64,000 bases of DNA, from assembly GCA_001803045.1 (NCBI GenBank), contig MHAR01000090.1, positions 3,498 through 67,497 on the forward strand. Reading direction: 5' to 3'. This document shows, piece after piece, positions 35,620 to 50,363 of this stretch. This DNA is from Ignavibacteria bacterium RIFOXYB12_FULL_35_14. GTDB taxonomy: Bacteria > Bacteroidota > Ignavibacteria > Ignavibacteriales > Ignavibacteriaceae. The translations under genes and the position numbers were made by a program. The notes beneath the pieces are model-generated. The model searched no databases and had not been told where the DNA came from. It saw only the letters and a program-made list of their open reading frames with translations. Position 1 is the stretch's first letter. Each line of letters starts with the position of its first letter.

Positions 35620-35635
35620 TGGCACATTTTTTTCT
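35620..35635 (+). promoter_or_regulatory. candidate sigma-54 promoter (TGGCAC-N5-TTTC)
   Basis: TGGCACatttttTTC lies about 45 nt upstream of the pilin-like gene 1 start. The -12 GC is replaced by TC. Confidence 0.3.
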
Positions 35636-35679
35636 GGACTCTTTACGAATGTTTTCAGAAATAATGTATAGAATGAAAC

Positions 35680-36063
35680 TTGGGTCAGCAGCAATTATTA
35701 TTAATTCTTCTTGGGATCGTAGTTATTGCAATAGCAGTAGCTATAGGCATAAGCTTGTTCAGGGCTCATGCGATATCCTCAAAACGGGATATACTAACAA
35801 ATGAAACGATTGATATGGCAGCACAAGCAATTGGCTATTACAAAAGAGCAAGAGAATTTGGCGGAGGAGGTAAGTCATTTATTGGCTGGCAAATTCCTCC
35901 TCAATTACAAAACACGGTTAATGGCTCATACGTTATTGATGCAATTAATAAAGATGAAGTGGTGATAATTGCAACAGGAACTGAAGTGGTAACCGGGAGC
36001 GATTCAATACAGGTTAAAACGACAGTTTACTCGGATAACTATCAAATAGAAGTAATTCACTAA
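35680..36063 (+). CDS. type IV pilin-like protein 1 (atypical, TTG start, no leader)
   Basis: (M)GQQQLLLILLGIVVIAIAVAIGISLF hydrophobic N-terminus, GGGG run, 127 aa. An in-frame TGA lies two codons upstream. No clear SD, so it may be weakly expressed. Confidence 0.5.
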   Translation: MGQQQLLLILLGIVVIAIAVAIGISLFRAHAISSKRDILTNETIDMAAQAIGYYKRAREFGGGGKSFIGWQIPPQLQNTVNGSYVIDAINKDEVVIIATGTEVVTGSDSIQVKTTVYSDNYQIEVIH

Positions 36064-36129
36064 TTAACAGAATGGATAAAATTTTAATCCATCTTATAAC
36101 TAACAATAAACTAAAATAGGAGATCTAAA

Positions 36130-36510
36130 ATGGGTCAACAGCAGCTTCTTTTAATCGTGCTCGGCGTTATCGTAGTAGGTATCGCAGTAGTTGTGGGTAT
36201 CAACTTGTTTAATGCTAACGCAGTTTCTTCAAACAGAGACGGAGTAGTTTCTGATTTGAATAACTTAGGTGCAATGGGGCAACAGTACTACAAGAAACCA
36301 ACTTCAATGGGAGGCGGCGGAAACACATTCACTGGCTGGACGCTTCCTGCAGAATTAGATACAACTGCAAACGGAAATTATGTACTGACAGTAAATGCAC
36401 AGTCACTTACAATTGAAGGATACGGAACTGAACTAGCGCCTAACGGAAGCAAGATAAACCACACAGCCACAGTGGGACCGTCCTCAATAACAGTGGTAAA
36501 AACTAACTAA
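36130..36510 (+). CDS. type IV pilin-like protein 2 (atypical, no prepilin leader)
   Basis: AGGAG SD, then ATG. In-frame TAA at 36112-36114. MGQQQLLLIVLGVIVVGIAVVVGINLF, followed by an amphipathic segment and a Thr/Asn/Gly-rich C-terminal half. 126 aa. Confidence 0.65.
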   Translation: MGQQQLLLIVLGVIVVGIAVVVGINLFNANAVSSNRDGVVSDLNNLGAMGQQYYKKPTSMGGGGNTFTGWTLPAELDTTANGNYVLTVNAQSLTIEGYGTELAPNGSKINHTATVGPSSITVVKTN

Positions 36511-36561
36511 TCACATGATAGTTGGAAAATTAAATTAAATTTAATTTAATAAATTCTTAAG

Positions 36562-36596
36562 GGCTGGTAAAACAAGTTTGTATTATCAGCCTTTTT
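36562..36596 (+). terminator. candidate intrinsic terminator after pilin-like gene 2
   Basis: ggctg...cagcc stem followed by tttttacttttt. The homologous site after pilin 3 (about 37423-37460) has a stem mismatch and an interrupted T-tract. Confidence 0.4.
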
Positions 36597-36614
36597 ACTT
36601 TTTAAAGGTGAAAA

Positions 36615-36744
36615 ATGATTGTAGTCAAATTTGCAATTGAAAAACAAGACCGATAGACCCTAAGCTGCTAGTTATCGGTTTTTTTATTCGGAGAGGGTAG
36701 GAAAAGAAATCAAAAGTATTTGGCAGAAGAGGTAAATCATATAC
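36615..36744 (+). pseudogene. decayed 5' fragment of the pilC-like gene
   Basis: atgattgtagtcaaatttgcaattgaaaaacaagaccgatag aligns to the pilC start at 37475 (atgattgaagtcaaatttacagcagaaaagcaagacgga) but contains stops. Confidence 0.65.
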
Positions 36745-36923
36745 CGGCTGGTAGATTCTAGCACGGATTCGAGTCATAGTGAATAACTTTTACACCAATA
36801 ATAAAATCAATGATGATAAGATGGGGTAATTACAACTGGCACTGAAGTTGTTAGCAGAGATGATGAAATGCAAGTTAAGACAATAGTTTACGCAGATAGT
36901 ATCAGTTGGCAGTAATTTGCTAA
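36745..36923 (+). pseudogene. decayed 3' fragment of a pilin-1-like gene
   Basis: Aligns to 35884-36063 (ggctggtagattc... versus ggctggcaaattcc...; ...actgaagttgttagc versus actgaagtggtaacc) and has in-frame stops. Confidence 0.6.
36837..36852 (+). promoter_or_regulatory. candidate sigma-54 promoter (TGGCAC-N5-TTGT)
   Basis: TGGCACtgaagTTGT lies about 140 nt upstream of pilin-like gene 3, inside the decayed pilin fragment. The homologous site in the intact gene (aggaactgaagtggt) lacks the motif. Confidence 0.35.
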
Positions 36924-36992
36924 TTCATAGAATGGATAAAATTTAAATCCACCAATAACTGGTAATCAATAAGAAAATATAGGAAATCTACA

Positions 36993-37373
36993 ATGGGTCA
37001 ACAGCAGCTTCTCTTAATTGTGCTTGGCGTTATCGTAGTGGGTATCGCAATAGCAATTGGTATTACTTTGTTTAGTGCTAACGCTGTATCTGCAAACAGA
37101 GACGGAGTAGTTTCTGATTTAAATCACTTGGGTGCAATGGCGCAGCAGTTCTACAAAAAACCAACCTCACAGGGCGGCGGTGGAAACGCATTCACAGGCT
37201 GGACACTTCCTGAAGAATTAGATACAACTGCAAACGGAAATTATGTGCTGACCGTAAATGCACAGTCAGTTACAATCCAAGGATATGGAACTGAGTTAGC
37301 GACTAACGGAAGTAAGATAAACCATACAGCAACAGTAGTGCCCTTTGCTGTAACAGTGGCAAAAACTAACTAA
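36993..37373 (+). CDS. type IV pilin-like protein 3 (atypical, no prepilin leader)
   Basis: About 86 percent aa identity to protein 2 by my count. AGGAA, then ATG. In-frame TAA at 36963-36965 with no ATG/GTG/TTG between it and the start. Confidence 0.65.
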   Translation: MGQQQLLLIVLGVIVVGIAIAIGITLFSANAVSANRDGVVSDLNHLGAMAQQFYKKPTSQGGGGNAFTGWTLPEELDTTANGNYVLTVNAQSVTIQGYGTELATNGSKINHTATVVPFAVTVAKTN

Positions 37374-37474
37374 TCAAATGATTGTTAGAAAATTAAATTT
37401 AAACCAGTTTAATAATCTTTTAGGGCCGAAAAACAGTTTGTATTTTCAGCCCCTCTACTTTTTAAAGGTGAAAA

Positions 37475-38848
37475 ATGATTGAAGTCAAATTTACAGCAGA
37501 AAAGCAAGACGGACAGGCAATAAGCGGTTCACTATCGGTTTCCTCTTATGGTGAGGGGAAGAAAAAAATTCAACGTCTTGCCGAGAAAAATCATTTGAAA
37601 ATAAAAGCAATTGAGCGTAAGGTAACCTATCTCTACAAAGCCAGGAAAGGTACAGATAAACCAATTAGGGGCGAACAAAAAGCATATTCAAAAAAAGAGG
37701 TAGATGATGCTTTAACTAGATTGGGTTTTAAAGTTCTGTCCGTCAATCGTAAATTAATTGACTTTCAAAGAAAACCACCAACGGCTGAAATAGTAACTTT
37801 TGTCAAAATCAGTGCAGAACTCTTGGAACAGAAACTTGCTTATGGCGAAATATTATCGCTTCTGATAAATGATACTCAGAACAAAACTCTTAAGGATACA
37901 TTAAAGGAAATTAATAATGATCTAAAAAAGGGTGCTGATAGTGAGGCAACATTCTTGAAGTATCAAAATGTTTTCGGAAAGTTCACTGCTTACATGCTTG
38001 GACTGGCTTCTAAAAGCGGTAACATGTCTGAAATTTATAAAGCCACTGCTAAATTTTTAGAGAGACGACAGGAATTCAAAAAGAGTTTAAGAAGTGCTTT
38101 AATAACTCCAGCAGTTACAATATTTGTCTTATTCTTAGCGGTTGTGTTTTATGTTGGATACATCTTTCCGGAAACAGCTAAACTATTCGTAAAATTTGGA
38201 ATCGAGCTTCCGCCAATGACAGCGTTTACCCTAAAGATGAGTGATTTTCTTACAAGTTATATTTTAATTATCATGGGATTAGCCGCAATACCACCGATTG
38301 TTCTTTGGCAAATGTCGAAAACTAAAAAGGGAGGAATAATTCTTGGGCGGATGATGTTGAAATTGCCTGTAATGGGTTCGCTCATACACAAAACATTAAT
38401 TGAGGTTTTTTGCAGAGTATTTTATACTCTTTACAGCGGTTCGGCTGAGAGTATCGAACCGATTAGAATTGCATCAGAGGCAGCAGGTAATAAATATTTC
38501 GAAGACCGAATAAAAAATGTTGCTATTCCATTAATGCTTAAGAAAGGGACAGGACTTACAGAGGCATTCGAAGCTTCCGGAGTTTTTACAGAAACAGCAC
38601 TATCAAGATTGCATTCAGGCGAAGAAACCGGAACGGTTAAAAACACTTCGCTGCAGCTTGCAAATTATTATGAAAGTGAAACTGTTTACCGTTTGAAAAA
38701 CTTGATTGAAGTGATTCAGGTAGCAATTGCGATGATAATAATGGTTGTAATGATTCTCTTGACATTAGTATCTGCAGAAACGGCTACAGTAAGACCGCCG
38801 ACACCTGGAGCATCAAATCAAATTAATGTTGAAAGAAATATAGGATGA
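37475..38848 (+). CDS. pilC: type IV pilus / T2SS platform protein (PilC/GspF family)
   Basis: Two GspF-type repeats, each ending in a TM pair (…GNMSEIYKATAKFLERRQEFKKSL… and …GEETGTVKNTSLQLANYYESE…). The N-terminal cytoplasmic domain is of the KF.A..QDGQ..SG type. Confidence 0.9.
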   Translation: MIEVKFTAEKQDGQAISGSLSVSSYGEGKKKIQRLAEKNHLKIKAIERKVTYLYKARKGTDKPIRGEQKAYSKKEVDDALTRLGFKVLSVNRKLIDFQRKPPTAEIVTFVKISAELLEQKLAYGEILSLLINDTQNKTLKDTLKEINNDLKKGADSEATFLKYQNVFGKFTAYMLGLASKSGNMSEIYKATAKFLERRQEFKKSLRSALITPAVTIFVLFLAVVFYVGYIFPETAKLFVKFGIELPPMTAFTLKMSDFLTSYILIIMGLAAIPPIVLWQMSKTKKGGIILGRMMLKLPVMGSLIHKTLIEVFCRVFYTLYSGSAESIEPIRIASEAAGNKYFEDRIKNVAIPLMLKKGTGLTEAFEASGVFTETALSRLHSGEETGTVKNTSLQLANYYESETVYRLKNLIEVIQVAIAMIIMVVMILLTLVSAETATVRPPTPGASNQINVERNIG

Positions 38849-40635
38849 TCGAAACCAATCTGGGCATGTCCGATAAAATTGGTTACCTCCTTTTTAAAAA
38901 AGGAATAATCGATACACAAATTCTCGAAAAGTCGCTGAATGTTAAATCGGAAGAGAAGGGGAAAATAAAGCGAAACCTCGCCCAGATATTAGTACAAAAT
39001 TTTGATTTTGATCATGATACAATATTTAAAGAAGTTGCAATACTTTATGCTTTCCGCGAACTTGAATTACCGGAAGGTGAGCCATTACAACATAAAATTG
39101 AAACAATAAAACAAGCGGTTGATAAAGTCAGCGATCAATTAAAACAAATGATGGCTGAGCATAAGGTAATTCCTTATGCTTATGATGAAAGGTTAAGAGA
39201 CAAATTAATTCTCGCAGCAATAGACCCGACCGATCGAAGTATTCCCAAAATAGCTTATGCATTAAATGCCAGGAAATATGAAGTAGTCTTCCTAAAAAAG
39301 AAAGATTTTGATAAAATAAGTCAATCAATACTTCCGGTCGAAAACGTTTACTTAAAAGCAATTGAAGACTCATCAGTGGAAATGGATATTGAAAGCGATG
39401 AAGCGTCTCTTGATGAGCAAGAACTTGATGCCGAAATAAATAAGAGTGCATTAATAAATCTCGTGGAAGGTGCCTTGGTAGAAGGAGTTCGAAAAGATGC
39501 CAGTGATATCCACTTTATACCCAAAGCAGGTCATAAAACCGAAATTCTTATTCGTATAGATGGAAATCTTCAACCATGGCATATCCAGGAAAACACCCTT
39601 CCCGAAGCAGTTGTTGCAGTTATTAAAGATCGTTCAAAAGGAATGGATAGATTTGAAAGAGAAAAAGCACAAGACGGTTTTATCCAGAGAGAGATTGACG
39701 GTCAAATAATAAGATTCAGAGTTTCAGTTCTTCCAATGGTGGGCACTGAATTAAGAAATAAATTTGAAAGCGTAGTAATAAGAATTCTTGATGACCGAAA
39801 GGTTGTTAAAGATTTAAGTAAGCTTGGACTTACGGGCTATGCTCAAGATGCTTTTGTAAAAGCCATCAGTCAGCCGCAAGGAATGGTTATTCTAACAGGA
39901 CCAACTGGAAGCGGTAAGAGTACCACATTAGTTGCAGCACTTTACCAGGTAATTGATCCAAGCGTAAACGTTCTCACCGTAGAAGATCCCGTTGAATATG
40001 TAATTGAAGGTGCCCGTCAGCTTAAAATTGGATACAAGATGGATTTTGAACAGGCAATTAGGTCCATTCTGCGTCATGACCCGGATATTGTTTTGGTGGG
40101 TGAGATGAGAGATAAAGAAACTGCTGAGGTTGCTATAAAGTTGGCAAACACAGGTCACTTGACCTTTTCAACTTTACATACTAATGATGCACCAAGTGCT
40201 GTTGCCAGATTGTATAAAATGGGTATTGAGCCGTTTTTAATTGCGTATGCAATAAACATCATAATGGCACAAAGGTTAGTTCGCAAATTATGCGAAGCTT
40301 GTAAAACAAAGGTTACTAAACTGGATGAGGATTTATTGTCAGCTGCTGGTATAGATATTAATGAATTAAAAAAGCATACAATCTTTGCAGCAAAAGGATG
40401 TGATAAATGTCATGGAACTGGTTACAAAGGTAGAATGGCGATACACGAAGCACTTTATTTCACAAAAGAAATACGACAAATCATCGTGCGCTCAGGTATT
40501 GAAGTCGATGAAGAGAAGATAAGAATTCAAGCTAAAAAAGACGGTTCAAAATCATTAAGAGACTCTGGAATAGAAAAAGTAATGTTGGGTCTTTCCTCGA
40601 TAGAAGAGGTACTTGCTTCAACTACCGACGAGTAG
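38845..40635 (+). CDS. pilB: type IV pilus assembly ATPase (PilB/GspE family)
   Basis: Walker A GPTGSGKST, GEMRD (Walker B/Asp box), TGHLTFSTLHTND His box, tetracysteine CEACK...CDKCHGTGYKGR, and a GSPII_E N-terminal domain. Confidence 0.9.
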   Translation: MIETNLGMSDKIGYLLFKKGIIDTQILEKSLNVKSEEKGKIKRNLAQILVQNFDFDHDTIFKEVAILYAFRELELPEGEPLQHKIETIKQAVDKVSDQLKQMMAEHKVIPYAYDERLRDKLILAAIDPTDRSIPKIAYALNARKYEVVFLKKKDFDKISQSILPVENVYLKAIEDSSVEMDIESDEASLDEQELDAEINKSALINLVEGALVEGVRKDASDIHFIPKAGHKTEILIRIDGNLQPWHIQENTLPEAVVAVIKDRSKGMDRFEREKAQDGFIQREIDGQIIRFRVSVLPMVGTELRNKFESVVIRILDDRKVVKDLSKLGLTGYAQDAFVKAISQPQGMVILTGPTGSGKSTTLVAALYQVIDPSVNVLTVEDPVEYVIEGARQLKIGYKMDFEQAIRSILRHDPDIVLVGEMRDKETAEVAIKLANTGHLTFSTLHTNDAPSAVARLYKMGIEPFLIAYAINIIMAQRLVRKLCEACKTKVTKLDEDLLSAAGIDINELKKHTIFAAKGCDKCHGTGYKGRMAIHEALYFTKEIRQIIVRSGIEVDEEKIRIQAKKDGSKSLRDSGIEKVMLGLSSIEEVLASTTDE

Positions 40636-40730: not shown

Positions 40731-42053
40731 TTGAATCCTACGGCACAGATACTTAAAAACAAAATTAAAGGCAATAGTGTGGCAGTCCAAGCTCTAGATC
40801 AAGTTCCTTCGAAAAGGAAAGCAATTCCTGTAGAAGAAGTAAAAAGAGTTCTTTCGGAATTTACTGAAAGCATTCCGGGCGACCTGAGAGGTCCTGATAA
40901 AGTTCTATATCTTTTCGAAAACAGTGTGAAGCTTCCAACCGAGAGCAAAGTACTATTGAAAGAGTACTTTGATCATTTATTAATTAATATGATTGAGCGA
41001 GATGCCTCTGACATTGAAATCGGTGGGCATGGCAACGAGGGGTATATATGGTTTAGGATTTATGGAATTAAAGAAAGAGCAATGGACCTGCCTCGTTTTA
41101 CCGAAGATGAATCTACAATGATCATCATCAATTTATTAAATGCCAACCAAAAGAAATATATATCGGTCGCCAAAAATCTTGATTTCAGTTACTCATGCTA
41201 TTACGAAAGGAAAAAGTTAAACATTCGTTTCAGAGCAGATGCATACTTTGAGCTTGATACTCTTGCCCTAAACATGCGTGCAATCAATTTGAATATAAGG
41301 CCTCTCGACTCACTTGGCTTTCATCCAAACGTTGTAAGAGTAATGAGCCATAGCTACATCAAGTTTGGCTTATCGTTAATAACAGGAATTACCGGTTCGG
41401 GTAAATCGACTACGCTTGATGCGATAATTGATGAGCATAATAAGTGCGATCCGGCACATGTTATTGTTATTGCTTCGCCTATAGAATATGTACATCGTTC
41501 GAACAAATGTATAATTAAACACAGAGAAGTTGGCAGAGATGTCATCTCTTTTAAAGATGGTGTTATTCAAGCGATGAGACAGGATCCGGATATTATAGTA
41601 ATTGGTGAAATGAGAGATCCCGAAACAATTTTAGCAGCACTTGAAGTTACCGATACGGGGCATAAAGTGTTCTCAACTCTCCATACTTCATCTGCGGTTG
41701 AATCAATTGATAGAATTGTTGCTGAGGTTAATCCTCATGAACAGGAGAGAGTAAGACATAGATTGGCTGATGTTTTAGTGTCCATAGTCTCACAAAAATT
41801 GCTTCCGGGTGTAGATGGTAAATTAGTCTTAGCAAAGGAAGTATTGGTAGTTACCCCCAGTGTAAAAGCCGCAATTAAGAACAATACCACAAGTGAAATT
41901 TACCTTATGATAAATCAAGGCGGCCCAATGGGTATGTTGACAATGGAACAAGATTTGAGGCGATTATATCTGAATAAAAAAATATCATTGGAAAATGCCA
42001 TTGCATATGCCAATAATAAAACAAGAATTCAACAACTTTTATCGGCTATCTAA
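40731..42053 (+). CDS. pilT: PilT-like retraction ATPase with ~100-aa N-terminal extension
   Basis: Walker A GITGSGKSTT, IGEMRDPETI, GHKVFSTLHTSSAVESIDRI. It lacks the Zn-binding Cys motif, as PilT/PilU do. TTG start. Confidence 0.8.
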   Translation: MNPTAQILKNKIKGNSVAVQALDQVPSKRKAIPVEEVKRVLSEFTESIPGDLRGPDKVLYLFENSVKLPTESKVLLKEYFDHLLINMIERDASDIEIGGHGNEGYIWFRIYGIKERAMDLPRFTEDESTMIIINLLNANQKKYISVAKNLDFSYSCYYERKKLNIRFRADAYFELDTLALNMRAINLNIRPLDSLGFHPNVVRVMSHSYIKFGLSLITGITGSGKSTTLDAIIDEHNKCDPAHVIVIASPIEYVHRSNKCIIKHREVGRDVISFKDGVIQAMRQDPDIIVIGEMRDPETILAALEVTDTGHKVFSTLHTSSAVESIDRIVAEVNPHEQERVRHRLADVLVSIVSQKLLPGVDGKLVLAKEVLVVTPSVKAAIKNNTTSEIYLMINQGGPMGMLTMEQDLRRLYLNKKISLENAIAYANNKTRIQQLLSAI

Positions 42054-43600
42054 TGAAACCTATTGTATGTGTATTTTGCGAAGGCAATGACACAAAAATT
42101 GCTGTCGTAGAAAAAGAAAAAGAAAAAATTAGAGTCCTCATAACTGGTTCGTATAATGTGATTCAACCTCCCGTTGTGGTAACCGAAGGTATTACAAATC
42201 TTAGAGTTGATACTGACGATCTTTCTTTTGAAGATTTGGATAAAGCATCTCCTATTACTGATGTAGAAGTGGTTAGCACTTCTGGTTTAGCATTAATAAG
42301 TACATCTCTCAAAGGAATTAATCTGAATAACAGCGTATTTATTCCGATTCTTACCGAACCAGTGCTTCATTACCATGTTTATGAGGGAAGTAAATTAGGC
42401 AAATCATCAAAATTCACTCAAGAGCTTATTAGAGATATTTATGAAACCAAGAACATAACAGTAAGCAAAGATGAATTAGCGTTTGTTGAACTTGCTGATA
42501 AATCTTCTCTGGCTGTTTTTCTTAACGGAGAAATAAGCTGTGTTAAATTGATAAACTCTCTTGCCGGATATAACGGTAAAAAGTTTTACAAAATACCAAC
42601 AATTAAAAGTGCTGAAATATCACTTGCAAATTATGTTGCTAAGAAAAAGAAATTTTTCCCCGATGATCAATCTCTTATTGTATATATCGGTAAAGAGTAT
42701 AGCAAGCTTATCTTTTTACAAGGAAGAAAATTAAAGCACATTGGTACAACGCTTGATATTGGTACCACAAACCTACACACTTACGATGTTTACTTCTCCA
42801 AAATTTTACTTGAAATGGATAATGGCGGTATAACATCACTTGATAATATAATTGTTTGCGGTGAAGATGATTCTGAAAATTTAATTCTTTCTTTTTATGG
42901 TACCTTTCCCGAAGCCAATGTTTCTAGATTAGAATTTGATGAGATAGATTATTCATTATTGAGCACCGAAGCTCAAACCTCAATTTCTGCATACAGCATA
43001 ATGCTGGCTATAGCAAATGAATACTTCGACGATCAAGTACAAAAACACTCGGAGAGTATAAACCTTTTACCAAGATATGTTAAAGAAGAACAGAAGGTAT
43101 TTCAGTTTGCATGGCACGGTTATGCTATTCTTCCATTATTATTTGGAGCAACTTTCTTTTTAACACTTCAGATACTGATGAACAATAAAAAGGTTAATGA
43201 ATTAGAAAAAGAAATTGCACAGCAAACGGTATTGCTTAGGCAGAATCAGGAAATACTTGGGCGTATTGCAGCCCTTGAAAGCAAGATAAGCGGATTTGGT
43301 CAAACTCAGGCAATATTAGATTCTGCATCCGTTGGAACTGGTGTTTGGTCAAAAGTAACAGAACATTTTTCTGATTTCTTTGGAGCTAAACAAAATATTT
43401 GGCTTACAAAGGCAGGTGCAGATGGGAATAACATAGCTCTGGAAGGTTTCACATTATCAAAGCTATCGCCAACAGAATTTGCATACTCAATCGATGGTTC
43501 GGAATTGAAAGGAATTTATTTCGAATCGATTCGTGAGAAAAACGCTTATCGTTTTAACCTAAATTTTAATCTATCACAATTTCCCAAAGTGACACAATGA
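42053..43600 (+). CDS. PilM-PilN fusion-like alignment protein
   Basis: The N-terminal ~340 aa has actin-like segments (VYIGKEYSKLIFL...LDIGTTNL). It is followed by the INLLPRY motif, a TM helix and a coiled coil, which is the PilN hallmark. Confidence 0.6.
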   Translation: MKPIVCVFCEGNDTKIAVVEKEKEKIRVLITGSYNVIQPPVVVTEGITNLRVDTDDLSFEDLDKASPITDVEVVSTSGLALISTSLKGINLNNSVFIPILTEPVLHYHVYEGSKLGKSSKFTQELIRDIYETKNITVSKDELAFVELADKSSLAVFLNGEISCVKLINSLAGYNGKKFYKIPTIKSAEISLANYVAKKKKFFPDDQSLIVYIGKEYSKLIFLQGRKLKHIGTTLDIGTTNLHTYDVYFSKILLEMDNGGITSLDNIIVCGEDDSENLILSFYGTFPEANVSRLEFDEIDYSLLSTEAQTSISAYSIMLAIANEYFDDQVQKHSESINLLPRYVKEEQKVFQFAWHGYAILPLLFGATFFLTLQILMNNKKVNELEKEIAQQTVLLRQNQEILGRIAALESKISGFGQTQAILDSASVGTGVWSKVTEHFSDFFGAKQNIWLTKAGADGNNIALEGFTLSKLSPTEFAYSIDGSELKGIYFESIREKNAYRFNLNFNLSQFPKVTQ

Positions 43601-44490
43601 ACAGGAAACTAAAAAATACGTTTGCTCTTGCAGGGCTGTTGTTATTTATTTTGATAGCCGGTGGAGTATATATTTTAATTTTACAACGCGGTGAATTGTC
43701 CGCTAAAGAAGAAAAACTAAGAGAATTAAAGGCAAATGATTATAACACAGAGCAATTAACTCTTCAATATGAAGATCTTTACCAAAGATCTGTAGTTCTC
43801 GATTCAGTACTTGCAGCTAGAAAATTTAATATTCCACAAAATCTATCTTCCATAAAATTTTATGATTTCGTAACTCGGTTAACTAATTTACTAACTGAAG
43901 ATACAAAGATTGATGTTGAATATGGAGAACAAAAACAAGAGCGAGATTTTTATTACTACGAGTATAAAGTTAAAGGTATAGCCCCTTACAACGATCTATA
44001 CAAATTCATTTATGGAATTGAACAAAGCAAAGAGCTTAAGAAAATTACATCGATCACTCTAGGAAGTCTTGTTAAAAATGAAAAAGAGGAAGGTCCGAAA
44101 TTCCTTGTTGCTTTTGCGTTCGTTGTTCATGTTTATTTTTCGAACGATAATCGTTTTGCCACAGCAGAGTTTGTAGAAAACAACCTATCAGCGCGCCCTT
44201 TGTATGATGCATTCTATCCATTACTTAGAAACGAAATTCCTTTAAATACCGAAGGTCTACTTGATATTCAGGGTGCAAAACTTCTGGCACTTGTACCTGA
44301 AGGTGCATTTCTAGCGGACGCAACTGGCAGTACATTCTTACTGTGGGAAGGTGAACCAGTTTACCTTGGGTATTTGACCAGCATCGATTATAAAAATAAT
44401 AAGGTGAAGTTTATTATTAACAGGGGCGGTGTAATCGAAAAAGTAGAGTTGTTTTTGGAAAAAGAAGAAGCAAATAAGAAAAATAAATGA
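43597..44490 (+). CDS. PilO-like protein with PilP-like C-terminal beta domain (possible fusion)
   Basis: N-terminal TM helix plus coiled coil (PilO layout). The C-terminal LLALVPEGAFLADATGSTFLLWEGEPVYLGYLTSIDYKNNKVKFII resembles the PilP/GspC HR-type beta-sandwich. Confidence 0.45.
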   Translation: MNRKLKNTFALAGLLLFILIAGGVYILILQRGELSAKEEKLRELKANDYNTEQLTLQYEDLYQRSVVLDSVLAARKFNIPQNLSSIKFYDFVTRLTNLLTEDTKIDVEYGEQKQERDFYYYEYKVKGIAPYNDLYKFIYGIEQSKELKKITSITLGSLVKNEKEEGPKFLVAFAFVVHVYFSNDNRFATAEFVENNLSARPLYDAFYPLLRNEIPLNTEGLLDIQGAKLLALVPEGAFLADATGSTFLLWEGEPVYLGYLTSIDYKNNKVKFIINRGGVIEKVELFLEKEEANKKNK

Positions 44491-45734
44491 GAGTAGAAAT
44501 TATGAAAACAGTAATATTATCATTGGTGTTGTTTTCGTTTGTCACTGTAACTGGATTATCTCAGCAATACCTTGAAAGGCAATTCAAGGGTTATATAAAT
44601 CCAGATGAGTTAGTTACTATGTCCGCAAATCTGCCATTTGACCAAGCAGTTGATCTCCTAAGCAAGGTTAGCGAGAGCTTGAGAGGAAAAAGGATAGTAT
44701 CAACCTACCAAAGCTCGGAACCAATCGGGTTAGAAATCGAGAACATGCAATATGAAAAGGCATTGGTTGTTTTGGTTCAGTATCGTGGATTAATGTATGA
44801 AGAAAAAGAAGATGTAGTCATTATTAAAAAGAGGGGCGAGAAAATAGATAATAGAACAGCCGAAAATTATGTCTCTGTTGATTCGCGAGAAGTAAAAATT
44901 TCAGCTGTATTCTTTGAAATGGATGTTAATGAGGCGCGGAAACGTGGGGTAGATTGGAAACTAATTTTTGAAAAGAAGGGATTAGACATAGGCGGACTTT
45001 TAGGTGTAGATAAAACCAAGACTCAAAGTCAAGGAACAAGCACTTTGCAAGAACCAACTTTTGATCTGGGCGTAGCCGGCGATTTTAATATAGGTAATTT
45101 CTTCGGTGAAGCCACGGCAATATTTAAGTTTTTTGAAACTGAAAATATAGGAGAAGTAATTGCAAGTCCTACGATAGTTGTTCGAGATGGTCGCCCGGGA
45201 AGAATTCAGGTTGGTTCGGATATATCTATTAAGCAAAAAGATTTTGCGGGAAACGTTATCGAGAATTTTTTCTCAACCGGTACAATCATTAATGTAACAC
45301 CTTATGTAATCAATGAAGAGGGTGTGGACTATACCCTCTTAAAAATTATTGCCGAAAGAAGCACCTTCGTGCCCGATCCATCTAATACTATAATCAATAA
45401 AACCCAAGCTTCTACGGAAGTTATTATGCTTAATGGTGAAGAAACTGTGATAGGTGGATTATTTGTAAATGATGAGGTAAAAATACGTTCAGGTGTCCCG
45501 ATTCTTAAAGATCTTCCGTGGTATGTATTAGGACTTAGGTATATCTTTGGTTCAGATGAGGTTCGGTTAAGTAAAAAAGAACTTGTAATTCTTCTTAAAG
45601 CAGAACTTGTTCCAGCATTGAAAGATCGCTTAGCCGGCACAAGCTCTACTACTCCTGTTCGTGATGAAGTTTTAAAACAGAGAGAAAAATTAAAAATGTA
45701 TCAATTCAATCAACAATTTGGTAACGGGAATTAG
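44487..45734 (+). CDS. secretin (short PilQ/GspD family)
   Basis: The C-terminal secretin core reads VIASPTIVVRDGRPGRIQVG...TEVIMLNGEETVIGGL...SGVPILKDLPWYVLGLRYIFG. The signal peptide begins at the internal MKTVILSL, so an alternative start at 44502 is possible. Confidence 0.8.
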   Translation: MRVEIMKTVILSLVLFSFVTVTGLSQQYLERQFKGYINPDELVTMSANLPFDQAVDLLSKVSESLRGKRIVSTYQSSEPIGLEIENMQYEKALVVLVQYRGLMYEEKEDVVIIKKRGEKIDNRTAENYVSVDSREVKISAVFFEMDVNEARKRGVDWKLIFEKKGLDIGGLLGVDKTKTQSQGTSTLQEPTFDLGVAGDFNIGNFFGEATAIFKFFETENIGEVIASPTIVVRDGRPGRIQVGSDISIKQKDFAGNVIENFFSTGTIINVTPYVINEEGVDYTLLKIIAERSTFVPDPSNTIINKTQASTEVIMLNGEETVIGGLFVNDEVKIRSGVPILKDLPWYVLGLRYIFGSDEVRLSKKELVILLKAELVPALKDRLAGTSSTTPVRDEVLKQREKLKMYQFNQQFGNGN

Positions 45735-45743: not shown

Positions 45744-46109
45744 ATGGAATCAATTTTAATTGTTGATGACGATTTAGGAGTATGCACAACTTTAAAGGAA
45801 GAGCTGGCTGAAGTTGGTTACGAAGCAGATTTTCTTTTAAGAGGTACAGAAGTATATGATTATCTGAAAACCAATTCGGTTGATCTTATACTTCTGGATT
45901 TAGTACTGCCCGAAAAAGACGGTTATGAGGTTTTAAAAGAAATCTCGGAAAATAAATTTGATGTGAAAGTTGTAGTATTAACAGCATATGCCGATGTGAA
46001 GAGTGCTATCGATTCGGCAAGGCTTGGTGCGAGTGATTTTATTAGTAAACCATATGATTTAGATGAATTACTAATAACAATTCGTAAGGTTCTGCAGCGA
46101 GATGATTAG
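45744..46109 (+). CDS. single-domain response regulator (CheY-like)
   Basis: DD...D (LILLDLVLPEKDG)...T...K receiver motifs, 121 aa. Confidence 0.85.
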   Translation: MESILIVDDDLGVCTTLKEELAEVGYEADFLLRGTEVYDYLKTNSVDLILLDLVLPEKDGYEVLKEISENKFDVKVVVLTAYADVKSAIDSARLGASDFISKPYDLDELLITIRKVLQRDD

Positions 46110-46111
46110 TA

Positions 46112-49100
46112 ATGAAAATAAGCTACCGAATACTTTTTATTAACTTTTTTGTTGTAGTATTAATTATAGGAAGCGCCTCCTTTGCTTTCTATTCCATAAT
46201 GTATAATGTTCTTACCAGTCAACAATCCAAATATCTACTTAAATCCTCCAATGATTTTATTTTTGCATACAATGAAACTTTTCAGAACACAGAAGATGAT
46301 TTTAATCAATTATCAAGAACAGAATTATTTTCTGGGGAAAGATTAAAATCTACCAGCATTGATTTTATCCTGGAACAAGATTCAAAAAACGTAAAAATCT
46401 ATTCACGCTCAGTTGTAAAAGCGGGAGTAAATCTCTCGCAAAAGTTCTCGTCGCTTGAAGAATTCATCAGCAATAATCCATCGGCAGTAATTAAAAGCCA
46501 TACATTTCCGGATGGAACTTCGGTTTATTATGGTCGTTTGCTTACGGATGAGTTCCTTAATTCCATTGCTCAAAAAATAAATGCTCAAGTTGTAATCATA
46601 ACAGGCAACTCAACACTGCAGGTATCAAATCAGTCGGCTAATCAGCAGTACATTTACTTTCTGAATAAAGCCTATAATAATTTATCCCGGCGAGAAAAAT
46701 TTAATGTTTATTCTGAAGATTCAGGTCAAGCTGATATCATATCAACACTTTGCAATATTTCGTCTAATATAAATGAAAATCAAAACCTCAAATTCCTAAT
46801 ATTCTCAACACTGAATGAAGCGGCAGATTTACGATCTAGCATTAAGTATATTTTAATCACAGTTGGAATAGCAGGTGTATTACTTTCACTCATTTTGACT
46901 TTCATGTTTACGCAAAAAATTAGAAGTCAGCTTCATTTGTTAAGTAATGCAACTGAACTTACAAAACAGGGAAACTTCAAAAATAAAATCGAAATTAAAT
47001 CAAATGATGAAATCGGACAATTAGCTTCGGCCTTTAACAACATGCTTGACGAGCTAGATAAACATGATCGAGCAATTACGGACTATTCCGATTTTATTGC
47101 TCTCATCAATAGAAATGCTTCTTTAAAGGAAATTGCAGATGCGGCATTGAATAAAATTATTAAAACGTGTGGATTTGCCGTCGGTGCAATCTATGCAGTA
47201 AAAGGCAGTTCCATTACGCTGATTCGTTCGTATGGTATTAAAGGAAAAACCGCCGCGGAAGATTATGAGTTTTTCGATTCAGCAATTAAGAATCGTGAAA
47301 TGCTCGAGCTTAATTTTGAAAAGAATTTTCCGACAGTTTCATCGGGAATTATCTCTCTTGAAATCAAGCACATGCTGTTGATTCCAATTATTTATAACAA
47401 CGAGGTAATTGCACTTCTGGAACTTGGCGGTTTGGATAGTCCATCTCAGGCAGTAAAGAATTACCTATCAAAGATTCAAGAACAGCTTGCGATTGGCTTA
47501 ACAAATGCTTTTGCATTTGTGCAGCTTGAAAATCTTGTTGTTGAGTTGAAGCTTTTGAATGAAGAATATCAAAAACAGAATCAACAGGTAAAGCAGCAAA
47601 ACGAATCATTAATAAAATTACACGATCAGCTCAGGGATAAAGCACGCGAACTTGAAGTTCAAAAATTGAGAGCTGAGGAATCTACAAAGCTAAAATCCCA
47701 ATTCCTGGCAAGTATGTCTCATGAGCTGCGAACTCCAATGAATTCTGTACTTGGATTAACAGAGCTAATACTCGATGAATCAACGTTATTAAACCCCAAA
47801 ACTAAAGAACGGTTGGAAATTGTTCATCGCAGCGGTAAACGTTTAATGAGTTTGATAAATGATATTTTAGATCTGTCCAAAATCGAGGCGGGGAAAATGG
47901 ATCTTAAACACGATGACGTTCTGCTCGAGGATATAATTCTTGATCTGGAAGCTTCAATAAGGCCATTAGTTGTAAAAAAGCATTTAGAACTTAAGATTGT
48001 TAGGAAAGCAAACACAAATGTTTTCATTGCTACCGACAGAGGAAAAGTAACTCAAGTTTTAATCAACTTACTGGGCAACGCAATTAAGTTTACTGAGCGG
48101 GGATTTGTTGAGCTTCATGTGGATGATTTGGGTGAAAATCAATTAAGATTTGATGTTGTTGATTCGGGAATAGGAATATCGATTGAAGATCAGAAAATAA
48201 TTTTTGAAGAATTCAGGCAGATAGATGGAACTGCCGCGCGAAAATACAGCGGCACAGGTTTAGGATTATCAATCTGTAAAAAAATTGCAGAGATGCTTAA
48301 CGGTTCGTTAAGCGTTGAAAGTCAGCTTAACAAGGGTTCGGTTTTCTCATTCATAATTCCTTTTAAAGTTTCATCAGAAAAAGAGCGACAAAAACAATCC
48401 GTTAATGTTGAAACCTTGAGGAAGAATAGAAAAAATCCAATCCTGGTAATTGATGATGATGCCGATATTAGAATTACTATTGGGCAATACTTGGAATCAA
48501 GGGGCTACAAAGTTGTTTATGCCGATAATGGTGCAAGCGGTGTTAATCTTGCAAAAGAACTGCAGCCGTTTGCAATAACTTTAGATTTGCTATTGCCTAA
48601 CAAAGATGGCTGGACCGTTCTTAAAGAATTGAAAGAGAATCCTGCAACTAAGAATATACCGGTTATTTTAGTTTCCATTATTGGCGATAAAAATCTTGGT
48701 TACGGGCTTGGAGCTTTCGAATATTTCGTAAAGCCAATATCACACAATGAGCTACTTTCAGCATTTAACAAACTAGAGAATTACGCTAGAAAAAAAATAG
48801 AAAAAATTATTTTGGTTGATGATGATGAATTAGAATTTGAGAGATTCAAGCGAGTATTGCATAATGATGGGGTTACCGTTCATTTTATTAAAGATAGTCA
48901 GTTTGCGTTTAATAAGATAGTTGATATTCAGCCCGATCTAATTGTTCTTGATTTACTTATGCCCGGAATAGATGGAATTACACTGACGCATGAACTAAGA
49001 AATTATAAAGAAACCAAACACATACCGATAATTATCAGCACAGCAAAAGATTTAAATGATGAAGAAAAAAATTCGCTTCGGCATATTGTTGAAGACATTA

Positions 49101-49660
49101 CGGTAAAATCTAAAGGTCATCCTCACGATGTTCTAAAAATTGTTAGAGATAGGATAAGAATGGATGAACTTTCATACTATGTTGAAGATACCGCAGGAAA
49201 ACAGCCTTTGGAAGAGATAGAAATTCTGAGTGACCAGATTCGGAATGTTTCTTTAGATGAAAAAAAAAACCGCAAAGAATTGCTCGGAGAAGTTTTAATT
49301 GTTGATGATGACCCTGACACTTTGTTCACAATCAATGAAATCGTTCAATCGTGCAATTGCACAACTTTTGTTGCTAAAAACGGACTTGAATGCCTTAACA
49401 TCTTAGAAAAAAATTTACCCGATCTTATTTTACTTGATATCATGATGCCGGAGATGGATGGTTTTCAGACCATAAAAAAAATACGCGAAAACTCAAATTG
49501 GAGGCATGTACCGGTTTTTGCAGTCACGGCACGCGCTATGCTGGAAGATCGGCAGATCATCCTTAAAAATGGATTTGATGATTATATAACTAAACCTGTC
49601 AATGCAGGGGTTATTTCATTCAAAATTGAAAAATTATTTTCAAAGATAAGGGCAACATAA
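46112..49660 (+). CDS. hybrid sensor histidine kinase: 2 TM + extracytoplasmic domain, HAMP, GAF, HisKA, HATPase, three receiver domains
   Basis: H-box SHELRTPMNSVLG, N/G boxes (NLLGNAIKFT, DSGIGI, GTGLGLSI), and three REC modules with LDLLLPNKDG, LDLLMPGIDG and LDIMMPEMDG. Confidence 0.9.
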   Translation: MKISYRILFINFFVVVLIIGSASFAFYSIMYNVLTSQQSKYLLKSSNDFIFAYNETFQNTEDDFNQLSRTELFSGERLKSTSIDFILEQDSKNVKIYSRSVVKAGVNLSQKFSSLEEFISNNPSAVIKSHTFPDGTSVYYGRLLTDEFLNSIAQKINAQVVIITGNSTLQVSNQSANQQYIYFLNKAYNNLSRREKFNVYSEDSGQADIISTLCNISSNINENQNLKFLIFSTLNEAADLRSSIKYILITVGIAGVLLSLILTFMFTQKIRSQLHLLSNATELTKQGNFKNKIEIKSNDEIGQLASAFNNMLDELDKHDRAITDYSDFIALINRNASLKEIADAALNKIIKTCGFAVGAIYAVKGSSITLIRSYGIKGKTAAEDYEFFDSAIKNREMLELNFEKNFPTVSSGIISLEIKHMLLIPIIYNNEVIALLELGGLDSPSQAVKNYLSKIQEQLAIGLTNAFAFVQLENLVVELKLLNEEYQKQNQQVKQQNESLIKLHDQLRDKARELEVQKLRAEESTKLKSQFLASMSHELRTPMNSVLGLTELILDESTLLNPKTKERLEIVHRSGKRLMSLINDILDLSKIEAGKMDLKHDDVLLEDIILDLEASIRPLVVKKHLELKIVRKANTNVFIATDRGKVTQVLINLLGNAIKFTERGFVELHVDDLGENQLRFDVVDSGIGISIEDQKIIFEEFRQIDGTAARKYSGTGLGLSICKKIAEMLNGSLSVESQLNKGSVFSFIIPFKVSSEKERQKQSVNVETLRKNRKNPILVIDDDADIRITIGQYLESRGYKVVYADNGASGVNLAKELQPFAITLDLLLPNKDGWTVLKELKENPATKNIPVILVSIIGDKNLGYGLGAFEYFVKPISHNELLSAFNKLENYARKKIEKIILVDDDELEFERFKRVLHNDGVTVHFIKDSQFAFNKIVDIQPDLIVLDLLMPGIDGITLTHELRNYKETKHIPIIISTAKDLNDEEKNSLRHIVEDITVKSKGHPHDVLKIVRDRIRMDELSYYVEDTAGKQPLEEIEILSDQIRNVSLDEKKNRKELLGEVLIVDDDPDTLFTINEIVQSCNCTTFVAKNGLECLNILEKNLPDLILLDIMMPEMDGFQTIKKIRENSNWRHVPVFAVTARAMLEDRQIILKNGFDDYITKPVNAGVISFKIEKLFSKIRAT

Positions 49661-49661
49661 T

Positions 49662-50363
49662 ATGAAACGAATATTGGTTATAGATGACTTACCTGAAAAT
49701 GTATTTATGCTTCAAGATCGGCTCGAAAATGAAGGTTATGAAGTAGTAACAGCTTACGACGGAAAAACCGGTATTGCCAAGGCAACAAACGATATGCCCG
49801 ATCTTATTCTTTTAGATGTTATGATGCCTGAAATGACAGGTATAGAAGTTTGTAAAATTCTTAAACAAGATCCCGGTACAGCAGACATTCCAATAATAAT
49901 TGTTACAGCTAAATCCGGTGCTGATGATGCTAAAGAGGGATTAGATGCCGGAGCATTGGATTACATCAAGAAGCCATTTGAAAAAGTAGAAATGTTAGCA
50001 AGAATAAATTCAGCTTTGAGATTGGCAGAAGCACATAAGCAAGTTATTGAAGCTGAAAAAAGAAGCACCTATGCGGCTACCGTTGTAACCACTAATCATA
50101 AAATTAAACAGCCGCTAACATTGATGAGCCTTTCTTCTGCGGCGATTAAGAGAGAATTAAATAAAGAACAGATTTCTAAAGAAGCAATCTTAAATCGGTT
50201 GAATTATATTGAAACAGCAATTAATGAGATTACTAACATTCTTAATCAGCTTAATGCAATAAAAAAACCACAGACTTCAGAGTATGCAAAAAATGTAAGG
50301 ATGGTAGAGGTTGAAAAGGATTCTGCGGAAAATTTCTCAGATAAACTTGCGGATAGTGGATAG
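49662..50363 (+). CDS. response regulator receiver fused to a DHp/H-box-like helical domain (no ATPase domain)
   Basis: REC motifs (LLDVMMPEMTG, VTAK, KP), then NHKIKQPLTLM, which resembles an SHELRTPL-type H-box, and helical sequence to the C-terminus. Confidence 0.7.
   Translation: MKRILVIDDLPENVFMLQDRLENEGYEVVTAYDGKTGIAKATNDMPDLILLDVMMPEMTGIEVCKILKQDPGTADIPIIIVTAKSGADDAKEGLDAGALDYIKKPFEKVEMLARINSALRLAEAHKQVIEAEKRSTYAATVVTTNHKIKQPLTLMSLSSAAIKRELNKEQISKEAILNRLNYIETAINEITNILNQLNAIKKPQTSEYAKNVRMVEVEKDSAENFSDKLADSG

Follow-up and report, generated by a model that had tools for sequence, protein, structure and literature searches.

Leaderless candidate pilins encoded by the first genes of an Ignavibacteria type IV pilus operon

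Four components define every type IV filament system described, whether bacterial or archaeal: the ATPase, the platform protein, the aspartic prepilin peptidase, and the pilins themselves, which bear a class III signal peptide. To our knowledge, every type IV pilin described is made with such a leader, and every known type IV filament system uses the peptidase. The locus examined here raises the question of how a pilus machine might obtain its subunits when the candidate pilin genes leave no room for a leader. It lies in a window of 64,000 nt (the whole stretch of DNA that was analyzed) from Ignavibacteria bacterium RIFOXYB12_FULL_35_14 (GCA_001803045.1, contig MHAR01000090.1, positions 3,498 to 67,497, forward strand). 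In this window, three paralogous small ORFs head a type IV pilus operon, and each product starts with MGQQQLLL. All coordinates are those of the window, and the genes, gene remnants, and hairpins given with coordinate ranges are on the + strand.

Gene 1 (35680..36063, 127 aa) has a TTG start without a Shine-Dalgarno site, separated by a single codon (AAC) from a TGA at 35674-35676. Genes 2 (36130..36510) and 3 (36993..37373) each encode 126 aa from an ATG, preceded by AGGAG at 36118-36122 and AGGAA at 36981-36985, respectively. Upstream of gene 2, a TAA at 36112-36114 is followed by five codons (AAT AGG AGA TCT AAA) and then the ATG; upstream of gene 3, nine codons without ATG, GTG, or TTG lead from a TAA at 36963-36965 to the start. 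The first-pass annotation had described upstream stops for all three genes, with no alternative start in between for genes 2 and 3, and its account stands for gene 1, for the five codons of gene 2, and for the Shine-Dalgarno-like AGGAA of gene 3, while the spacing it gave for gene 3, ten codons, is nine. Its description of the products is borne out in the sequence: after MGQQQLLL, all three continue with approximately 20 uncharged hydrophobic residues, an NAVSxNRD..SDLN segment, a GGGG run, and a Thr/Asn/Gly-rich C-terminal half.

The three paralogs fall into two types. The products of genes 2 and 3 (type 2) are 84% identical, and that of gene 1 (type 1) is 40% identical to that of gene 2. Ignavibacteria bacterium RIFOXYB2_FULL_35_12 has a hypothetical protein that matches the gene 2 product with 100% identity. 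Judging from its weak start, gene 1 probably encodes a low-abundance or minor pilin, while genes 2 and 3, with their strong starts, probably encode the major pilins. Gene 3 is a duplicate of gene 2, the two being 87% identical at the DNA level (direct repeat D1). Two further direct repeats accompany them: D2 (36569-36713 vs 37429-37573, 77% identical), which contains a remnant of the pilC 5′ end (36615..36713), and D3 (36040-36091 vs 36900-36951, 83% identical), which belongs to a remnant of a gene-1-like pilin 3′ end and intergenic palindrome (36815..36951), the upstream extension of this remnant being read directly from the sequence. On the pattern of these repeats, both remnants are attributed to one tandem duplication of ~860 bp.

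A terminator-like hairpin followed by UUUUUACUUUU lies 3′ of gene 2 (36559..36594; −16.9 kcal/mol, z-score −4.4); its folding energy was not reached by any of 200 shuffled sequences. A weaker one occupies the gap between gene 3 and pilC (37423..37452; −11.1 kcal/mol, z-score −2.2). A sigma-54 promoter, as in classical pilA, was considered for TGGCACATTTTTTTC at 35620, upstream of gene 1, and rejected, since such matches occur in the window no more often than expected by chance; a sigma-54-like match is found upstream of only 6 of 83 related genes.

The unusual N-terminus extends well beyond this genome. At 90% identity, 5147 clusters match the family, and at 50% identity, 2109 do; an M/L/V-G/A start is present in 134 of the 150 best 50%-identity cluster representatives, the other 16 being fusions, fragments, or mis-called starts. 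Among the 134, position 2 is Gly in 133 and Ala once, Q3 is present in 120, Q4 in 124, and Q5 in 131, and L6 to I9 are each conserved in >88%. Glu is found at position 5 in only two of them, and rare variants of the family begin MGTKELLF, MGTREILL, or MGQRELLL. By these counts, the MGQQQ pattern is far beyond chance, and the suggestion that MGQQQ is the family-wide N-terminus is upheld. At most two to three residues (M-G-Q) precede the helix, none of them basic, and the window pilins have no acidic residue at positions 1-27.

The start site can be observed directly in 83 homologous genes from related genomes and independent assemblies. An in-frame stop occurs 1-24 codons upstream, with no ATG, GTG, or TTG between, in 81 of the 83 genes, and GGAG is placed at a Shine-Dalgarno distance (4-16 nt) in 66. 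Only P0203 (MEGKSK-MGQKQ) seems to carry a basic leader, and this extension is an artefact of gene calling: its ATGGAGGG serves as the Shine-Dalgarno site of the ATG that begins MGQKQ. The first-pass annotation had named basic leaders in homologues as the sign of a local start-site artefact; on the evidence of these genes, the missing leader is no such artefact and is kept across related genomes. None of the other observations that it had named as refuting its reading was made either.

Does the rest of the protein resemble a pilin? The AlphaFold model of the gene 2 product (pLDDT 82) consists of a helix at residues 3-55 (53 residues) and a four-stranded sheet. Its top PDB match in Foldseek is the full-length PAK pilin 1oqw (TM 0.66 (TMq), probability 0.97), although the Foldseek E-values are weak (0.24). 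The predicted fold is thus that of a type IV pilin, in agreement with the pilin size and layout recognized earlier from the sequence. The frequency of the commonest residue among 120 representatives is 0.94 for residues 1-9, 0.77 for 1-27, 0.53 for 28-56, and 0.42 for 57-126, and in this measure conservation drops from the N-terminus to the head in a pilin-like manner. In contrast to the fold, profile searches do not recognize the proteins. No Pfam family matches the three pilins at E≤1, N_methyl (PF07963) and DUF361 included, and no relevant NCBIfam family does so at E≤0.1, the cleavage/methylation model TIGR02532 being unmatched. The canonical class III motif G/FTLIE (the slash marking the cleavage site) is absent in any frame of the window and in the related loci (1.3 Mb). 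The pilins also contain no Cys and hence no C-terminal disulphide loop.

The genes that follow encode a type IVa-like machine, with PilB, PilC, PilT, and a PilQ-type secretin encoded together with the pilins. The platform protein PilC/GspF (37475..38848) matches Pfam T2SSF (3.4e-28) and the NCBIfam GspF and PilC models (1e-40, below the equivalog cutoffs). It is followed by the assembly ATPase PilB (38845..40635; Pfam T2SSE 6e-104; best NCBIfam model type IV-A PilB, TIGR02538, 3.7e-126) and by the retraction ATPase PilT (40731..42053; TIGR01420 (PilT/PilU family), 321 bits against a cutoff of 319.1). The next gene (42053..43600) encodes a 515-aa protein that joins a cytoplasmic N-terminal domain to a PilN-like part, in which an INLLP motif (residues 336-340) is accompanied by a transmembrane segment, a coiled coil, and a periplasmic domain. 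Its residues 331-471 align with residues 3-134 of E. coli HofN (hhalign E 0.0011). A weak NCBIfam match to a PilM-like family suggests that the N-terminal domain would be PilM and the protein a PilM-PilN fusion, although hhalign against E. coli HofM was negative. A conserved 297-aa protein (43597..44490), present in 55 of 80 related loci, has no Pfam or NCBIfam match and was negative in hhalign against E. coli HofO and HofP; from its operon position, it is possibly equivalent to PilO/PilP. The outer-membrane secretin (44487..45734; Pfam Secretin 5.9e-25) has PilQ as its best NCBIfam model. By domain assignment, a single-domain response regulator, a 1182-aa hybrid histidine kinase, and a REC protein (45744..50363) lie 3′ of the operon.

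This arrangement is conserved. PilC is encoded directly downstream of the pilin in 67 of the 80 related loci, PilB is present in 61, PilT in 56, and the secretin in 53, which bears out the expectation that homologous pilin genes adjoin PilB and PilC. A REC or histidine-kinase homologue lies 3′ of the secretin in 48 of 80. In at least 42 of 80 loci, a type 1 paralog lies upstream of the pilin that is nearest to PilC, and about two thirds of the type 1 paralogs with a readable N-terminus start with TTG or GTG; as far as gene order and sequence tell, the two-class pilin arrangement is conserved as well. The type 1 paralog is the only second pilin class found, and no FimU/PilVWX-like genes occur within 10 kb. 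An AftB-like glycosyltransferase encoded upstream was considered as a conserved pilin-modifying partner and rejected, a homologue being found within 10 kb in 1 of 80 loci.

In the preferred reading, the filament of the downstream T4aP-like machine is built from the products of these three genes, which are translated without a class III leader, to which a probability of about 0.5 is assigned. A more specific proposal, which falls somewhat short of an even chance, is that Ignavibacteriota build retractile type IV pili from subunits made already "mature", with no leader, peptidase, N-methylation, or Glu5 salt bridge. Met-Gly-Gln would take the place of the canonical prepilin positions −3 to −1, and the hydrophobic helix would begin directly after. 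The pilin would insert N-in/C-out as a signal-anchor protein via SRP/Sec-YidC and would undergo no endoproteolysis by an A24 prepilin peptidase, only deformylation and Met removal at most. Gly2 favors the removal of Met. PilB and PilC would then pull the pilin out of the membrane and polymerize it, the filament would leave through the secretin, and PilT would retract it. In the filament core, the invariant G-Q-Q-Q polar cap would replace the charge pair of N-methyl-Phe1 and Glu5. From the locus we infer that filaments form and that they do so independently of the peptidase, and likewise the state of the mature N-terminus and how the Gln cap acts. Since the helix-first start MGQQQLLL is found phylum-wide, these pili may be built without a prepilin peptidase.

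If this is true, no type IV filament lineage before it would have dropped the signature peptidase that now defines the superfamily, and the leader, the peptidase step, and the pair of Glu5 and the N-terminus would be dispensable for membrane extraction and polymerization. For thousands of Ignavibacteriota genomes, the family would then supply the "missing pilin", and it would offer a natural test case for the purpose of the leader and of N-methylation. Several observations go against the preferred reading. The Foldseek E-values are weak, the sequence links to canonical pilins fall below significance, a FimU/PilVWX-like minor-pilin set was not found, no filament is documented from any Ignavibacteriota, and a few family members have another N-terminus in place of MGQQQ. 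The near-invariance of Gly2, too, is stricter than Met excision alone needs, as this process also permits Ala, Ser, Thr, and others at position 2, and by analogy it recalls the Gly(−1) that prepilin peptidases demand.

This resemblance is the starting point of the strongest competing explanation, which is regarded as less likely. Here, Met-Gly would be a two-residue class III leader, cut after Gly2 by an A24 peptidase encoded elsewhere in the genome, leaving a mature N-terminal Gln that is possibly cyclised or methylated. Prepilin peptidases require Gly or Ala at −1, and the single Ala among otherwise uniform glycines mirrors this rule. The register of the family against canonical pilins places the glycine differently. 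HMMER against Geobacter PilA (E 0.23) puts the canonical +1 at family residue 4, hhalign against the E. coli class III profile (E 0.011) gives the same register, and ungapped BLOSUM62 scans against PpdD, GspG, GspH, GspJ, and PilA favor an offset of 3. These sequence links to canonical pilins are weak and below significance, yet all are in one register. Because the three independent alignments put +1 at residue 4, Gly2 would stand at −2 instead of the canonical −1. In this register, +1 falls on Gln4 and +5 on Leu8, such that Leu occupies the place of Glu5, and the reported absence of Glu5 and of Phe/Met at +1 is confirmed. A register with Met1 as +1 and Gln5 in the place of Glu5, an idea suggested by the variants MGTKELLF, MGTREILL, and MGQRELLL, is disfavored, as all three weak alignments give the offset of 3. 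In addition, no basic residue precedes Gly2, and we know of no prepilin peptidase substrate with a leader as short as two residues.

A cleaved two-residue leader also demands a peptidase, and none is encoded nearby. Searches with E. coli GspO and PppA (phmmer) against ORFs of ≥100 aa in the window and the 80 related loci (1.3 Mb in total) gave no A24 match. Pfam assigned the multi-pass membrane ORFs of the window to an M48 peptidase, EamA, and others, with no A24 among them, and no A24 peptidase occurs in the 10 kb beyond each window end. The missing peptidase noted in the first-pass annotation therefore extends to the window, its 10-kb flanks, and the 80 related loci. PilFind, the N_methyl models, and TXSScan key on the leader/Gly/Glu5 motif. 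Because pilin finders depend on this motif, genomes of the phylum Ignavibacteriota have been reported with pilB, pilC, pilT, and pilQ but "no pilA, no pilD"; the 2013 genome paper of Melioribacter roseus, in an annotation-based statement, reports both pilA and pilD as missing, and the reported lack of pilD counts against a cleaved leader. Conversely, a canonical pilin of the Geobacter-like kind is reported from at least one Ignavibacteriales MAG (PMC7399161), so that some members would be expected to have a peptidase, and MSH pilus loci, too, have no peptidase of their own and borrow it from another system (PMC6668835).

Leaderless filament subunits also have to be weighed against an improbable alternative, in which the products are not surface pilus subunits and instead are pilin-fold, inner-membrane-anchored periplasmic proteins, e.g., of a short T2SS-like pseudopilus or as machine accessories. 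Relatives with lipoprotein signals, Sec signals, or multi-domain architectures do exist. P0148, P0165, P0164, P0210, and P0121 carry lipoprotein or Sec signals or cytoplasmic fusions in place of MGQQQ, so the head domain is not exclusive to pili. The "T2SS" of Bacteroidetes, which groups with T4aP, likewise has a major pilin of great divergence (PMC6668835), and literature searches retrieved no filament or pili documented for any Ignavibacteriota; on the motif, leaderless pilins, and Ignavibacteria pili, they retrieved nothing relevant beyond PMC3534657. However, the locus contains a PilT that scores above its family cutoff and is conserved in the operon, and no GspC, GspL, GspM, or minor pseudopilin genes. 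The conservation of the N-terminal helix (0.94) is far above that of generic membrane anchors, and a strong Shine-Dalgarno site, an ATG, and a downstream attenuator-like hairpin suit a highly expressed structural subunit.

Less probable still is that the hydrophobic N-terminus acts as an unusual Sec signal peptide, which signal peptidase I would cut near Ala29-x-Ala31 to release a soluble periplasmic protein. Genes 2 and 3 do encode A-N-A there (residues 29-31), 119 of 134 representatives have Ala or Ser at position 31, and this boundary is also where lipoprotein variants such as P0148 are cut. Yet Sec and lipoprotein signals have a basic n-region, an h-region of 10-15 residues, and an AxA site or lipobox, while the pilins have no basic n-region, a hydrophobic run of 22 residues, which is too long, and no Cys. 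About 30% of representatives carry Asp, Gln, Glu, or Asn at position 29 (−3), residues that signal peptidase I does not accept at −3. Moreover, signal peptides evolve fast, whereas conservation in these proteins is highest in this very segment, and the AlphaFold helix runs unbroken from residue 3 to 55. The Sec/lipoprotein class was rejected on these grounds. Finally, the idea that the true proteins have a normal basic leader, missed through mis-annotation or sequencing error, found no support, although a handful of database entries have longer N-termini, and is effectively refuted at the sequence level by the in-frame stops in independent assemblies, the Shine-Dalgarno site conserved at the correct distance, and the artefactual extension of P0203.

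How, then, do these putative leaderless pilins compare with known systems? With the type IVa pilins of Pseudomonas, Myxococcus, and Geobacter, they share an α1 helix of ~53 residues with an antiparallel sheet, a length of ~125 aa, and an N-terminal helix as the most conserved part, and with Geobacter PilA and E. coli GspG they share a sequence register over about 40 residues. As in the type IVa machine (PilA with PilBCD, PilT, and PilMNOPQ), the pilin genes come first in an operon that also encodes PilC, PilB, PilT, a PilN-like protein, and a secretin. In contrast to type IVa pilins, they have no basic leader, no Gly at the aligned −1, no Phe/Met at +1, Leu for Glu5, and neither an N_methyl match nor a C-terminal disulphide loop, and the operon differs in having no linked PilD, no recognizable minor-pilin set, and apparently fused PilM and PilN.

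A Gln mature N-terminus is known from Methanococcus EpdE-type pilins; archaeal precursors carry basic leaders and are processed by the dedicated peptidase EppA. The Gly-Gln dipeptide is all that the Ignavibacteria pilins share with EppA-type (DUF361) pilins, along with a mature Gln if they were cut after Gly2. They have no basic leader, and their machine is bacterial (PilT, secretin). The link to these archaeal pilins raised in the first-pass annotation is unsupported because no Pfam match, DUF361 included, was obtained at E≤1. Flp/Tad pilins are 50-80 aa long, bear a G/xxxxEY motif, and are accompanied by TadA/B/C and TadV; this class was rejected for proteins of 126 aa with no EY motif and a PilB/PilC/PilT-type machine.

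MSH pili are a type IV filament class whose loci, like the present one, encode no prepilin peptidase (PMC6668835). However, MSH pilins keep the class III leader and Glu5 and use the peptidase of a co-resident system, whereas the Ignavibacteria pilins have no leader. The so-called T2SS of the Bacteroidetes (Cytophaga) acts in secretion. Its place is in a cluster with T4aP, and its major pilin is described as "very divergent" (PMC6668835); likened by description only, it resembles the present system in its related lineage and divergent major pilin. Set against the known type IV pilins, these proteins differ in that the leader itself is absent while the predicted fold, the conservation pattern, and the operon are pilin-like.

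Three paralogous ORFs beginning with MGQQQLLL stand at the head of a type IV pilus operon in the window, which belongs to an Ignavibacteria MAG and has a G+C content of 35%. Gene 1 (35680-36063, 127 aa) starts at TTG, and genes 2 (36130-36510) and 3 (36993-37373), each encoding 126 aa, start at ATG. Their products were accurately described in the first-pass annotation, with a hydrophobic stretch of ~22 residues, the sequence NAVSxNRD..SDLN..L, a GGGG stretch, and a head rich in Thr, Asn, and Gly. The interpretation with the best support is that these proteins are true pilins belonging to a T4aP-like machine and are synthesized with no class III leader, the signal peptide that the A24 peptidase PilD removes from prepilins. 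A hypothetical protein of Ignavibacteria bacterium RIFOXYB2_FULL_35_12 has the same sequence as the gene 2 product (100% identity), and one gene flanking the window has its match in GCA_001802845.1.

Upstream of genes 1, 2, and 3, an in-frame stop occurs after 1, 5, and 9 codons, respectively, with no ATG, GTG, or TTG between stop and start in any of them; AGGAG precedes the gene 2 ATG by 8 nt, and AGGAA is placed likewise before gene 3. Of the 83 family genes in the window and the 80 related loci, 81 are preceded by an in-frame stop at a distance of 1-24 codons, and no usable start codon intervenes; 66 carry GGAG 4-16 nt upstream of the start. Only one cluster representative, P0203 (MEGKSK-MGQKQ), appears to have a basic leader, and this is an artefact of gene calling: the "ATGGAGGG" ahead of the MGQKQ ATG is the Shine-Dalgarno site of that codon. 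The stop/start geometry, the conservation of the Shine-Dalgarno site, and the P0203 artefact thus refute a local start-site error, which had been considered as an explanation for the missing leader, and translation almost certainly starts at MG.

When 1.84 billion 50%-identity cluster representatives were searched with a profile, 2109 matched at E ≤ 1e-3, and the best 150 of these were used for N-terminal statistics. The suggestion that MGQQQ is the family-wide N-terminus holds among these: 134 start with M/L/V followed by G/A, and within this group Gly2 is present in 133, Gln3 in 120, Gln4 in 124, and Gln5 in 131, with L6, L7, L8, and I9 each exceeding 88%. The other 16 comprise fusions, fragments, and variants of lipoprotein or Sec type. 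A few members (L075 10001, P0207, and P0235) carry an acidic cap residue, always at position 5 and always with Lys/Arg at position 4 (MGQRELLL, MGTKELLF, and MGTREILL); this pairing suggests local charge compensation in a cap that may not tolerate net charge. The pilin head and amphipathic helix are also found in other architectures (P0148, P0165, P0121, P0164, P0210, and P0237), where they follow a lipoprotein signal (LIVSC|NSNAVEANRD), Sec-type signals, or zinc-ribbon cytoplasmic domains joined to another kind of transmembrane segment; one secreted protein of 581 aa contains as many as five copies in tandem.

A scan with one genome per species yielded 497 relatives, from which the 80 loci were fetched. 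These are named almost wholly Ignavibacteria, Ignavibacteriaceae, Melioribacteraceae, or "Bacteroidetes bacterium" and include Melioribacter roseus, the isolate Stygiobacter electus, three closed chromosomes, and one Calditrichaeota MAG. Three loci on short contigs bear names of unrelated phyla (L034, a Legionella MAG; L049, a Deltaproteobacteria MAG; L068, an Acidobacteriota MAG). Their PilC proteins are 68-78% identical to that of the window, and the loci probably reflect mis-binning of Ignavibacteriota contigs, not horizontal transfer. Literature searches found no description of either the family or the MGQQQ motif.

None of the three proteins matches a Pfam family at E ≤ 1 or a relevant NCBIfam family, so the link to archaeal DUF361 pilins raised in the first-pass annotation was not borne out. 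A profile search of PDB sequences gave only sub-threshold matches, to Geobacter PilA (E = 0.23), and two IMG entries are named "Tfp pilus assembly protein PilE". AlphaFold2, run on a 12-sequence alignment, predicts an unbroken helix at residues 3-55 followed by four beta-strands (pLDDT 82, pTM 0.64). When compared with pilin folds, as had been proposed, the model finds its best PDB match in the full-length PAK pilin 1oqw (probability 0.97, TM 0.66/0.58, with a weak Foldseek E of 0.24), and the truncated PAK pilin is matched as well. The conservation profile is the classical pilin pattern, with commonest-residue frequencies of 0.94 for residues 1-9, 0.77 for residues 1-27, 0.53 for the amphipathic helix half, and 0.42 for the head; the opposite pattern is typical of ordinary signal peptides and membrane anchors. 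The three proteins resemble pilins in structure, evolutionary pattern, and genetic context, and lack every class III attribute, i.e., the leader, Gly(-1), a hydrophobic +1 residue, Glu5, and a model match. They are very likely pilin-fold subunits tied to the downstream machine. DUF361, Flp, and Sec/lipoprotein precursor identities were rejected for the three proteins.

This machine is encoded on the same strand, with PilC (T2SSF) directly downstream of the pilins, together with PilB (best match type IV-A PilB), PilT (321 bits, cutoff 319.1), proteins of 515 and 297 aa, and a secretin, after which come a single-domain response regulator, a hybrid histidine kinase, and a further REC protein. In the 515-aa protein, the C-terminal third, from the INLLP motif on, can be aligned with E. 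coli HofN (PilN) (hhalign E = 0.0011), which suggests fusion of a cytoplasmic domain to PilN; by position only, the remaining parts of the 515- and 297-aa proteins would represent PilM, PilO, and PilP. The adjacency to PilB/PilC genes recurs in the relatives: downstream of the pilin, PilC is present in 67 of the 80 loci, PilB in 61, PilT in 56, the 515- and 297-aa proteins in 55 each, and the secretin in 53, the exceptions being mostly short contigs or orphan extra copies.

Divergent from the pilin genes is an AftB-like GT-C arabinofuranosyltransferase (33559-35184, minus strand, 541 aa, ~10 TM; NCBIfam NF041481 at 2e-21, PDB 9dlf AftB at 6e-19). It recalls TfpW, the pilin arabinosyltransferase found beside pilA in some Pseudomonas strains. 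Only 1 of the 80 related loci has a homolog within 10 kb, so the adjacency may be lineage-specific or coincidental. Two tandem "choice-of-anchor V" paralogs are located at 54767-55285 (1e-44) and 55306-56136 (1e-47); the latter has a T9SS Por_Secre_tail sorting domain, and the organism therefore also has a type IX secretion system.

At least 42 of the 80 loci harbor two pilin classes. Type 1, the upstream gene-1-like paralog, has a TTG/GTG start in about two thirds of readable N-termini and no Shine-Dalgarno site, and type 2, the PilC-proximal paralog, has an ATG start and a strong Shine-Dalgarno site, a distribution that fits a minor/major pilin pair. Terminator-like hairpins follow gene 2 (-16.9 kcal/mol, z -4.4) and gene 3 (-11.1 kcal/mol, z -2.2), as expected where an abundantly expressed subunit gene precedes machinery genes. 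Gene 3 was created by a tandem duplication of ~860 bp (36040-36713 and 36900-37573) spanning the gene 1 3′ end, gene 2, and the first ~100 nt of pilC. It left behind fragments of the pilC 5′ end (36615-36713) and of the 3′ end of a gene-1-like pilin (about 36815-36922), with ~100 nt of unrelated sequence (about 36714-36815) between them. A palindrome, ATGGAT-N9-ATCCAT, is kept upstream of genes 2 and 3 (36073-36093 and 36933-36953); folded as RNA, it gives no more than a weak hairpin (-4.9 kcal/mol, z -1.7), and its role could be that of an operator or of a processing site. A sigma-54-like TGGCAC-N5-TTTC (35620-35634) lies 45 nt upstream of gene 1, and the minus strand encodes a REC-domain sigma-54 activator at 52321-53691. 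Operon pilins show no conservation of this upstream element (6/83), but orphan pilin copies in L023 and L042 have CGGCAC/CGGTAC-N5-TTGC at -48.

The canonical G|[FM]-x-L-x-E motif is absent from every frame of the window and 1.3 Mb of related loci. No A24 peptidase was detected by phmmer with E. coli GspO and PppA among 1694 ORFs of the window and loci, by Pfam among the multi-pass membrane proteins of the window (which gave an M48 peptidase and EamA transporters), or within 10 kb beyond each window end. The MGQQQ family accounts for the pilA reported missing from Melioribacter roseus and, if the statement on pilD in that genome paper holds, also explains the missing pilD.

Charges on the N side of the hydrophobic segment are limited to the amino terminus plus an occasional Lys/Arg at positions 3-4, and those on the C side (Arg36, Asp37, and Asp42) are net negative; this asymmetry fits N-in/C-out insertion. 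Under the methionine aminopeptidase rule, Gly2 favors Met excision, which is thus likely, and maturation would then require no endoprotease, with the invariant GQQQ cap substituting for the N-methyl-Phe1/Glu5 pair. The peptidase independence of the pilins is given a probability of about 0.5.

The main rival, held as less likely, is a minimal leader, in which an A24 enzyme from elsewhere in the genome cuts off Met-Gly. Its strongest support is the near-invariance of Gly2 (133/134). Three weak but concordant alignments place family residue 4 at the canonical +1 and Leu8 at Glu5: HMMER against Geobacter PilA (weak, residue 4 at +1), ungapped BLOSUM62 scans against E. coli PpdD, GspG, GspH, and GspJ and PilA (offset 3 best in 5/6 comparisons), and hhalign against an E. 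coli class III profile (residue 4 at +1, E = 0.011). In this register, Met-Gly-Gln occupies the place of the last three leader residues and Gly2 falls at -2, not at the -1 position where canonical prepilins require Gly. A register with Met1 at +1 and Gln5 at Glu5, prompted by the rare Lys/Arg4-Glu5 variants, is less favored by the same weak alignments. A borrowed peptidase is possible, since MSH loci lack one yet always co-occur with peptidase-bearing systems (type IV filament analysis, PMC6668835). A non-filament role, signal peptidase I cleavage, and an artefact carry small weights. The filament proposed here, built from pilins made without a class III leader, would function in the manner of a type IVa pilus.
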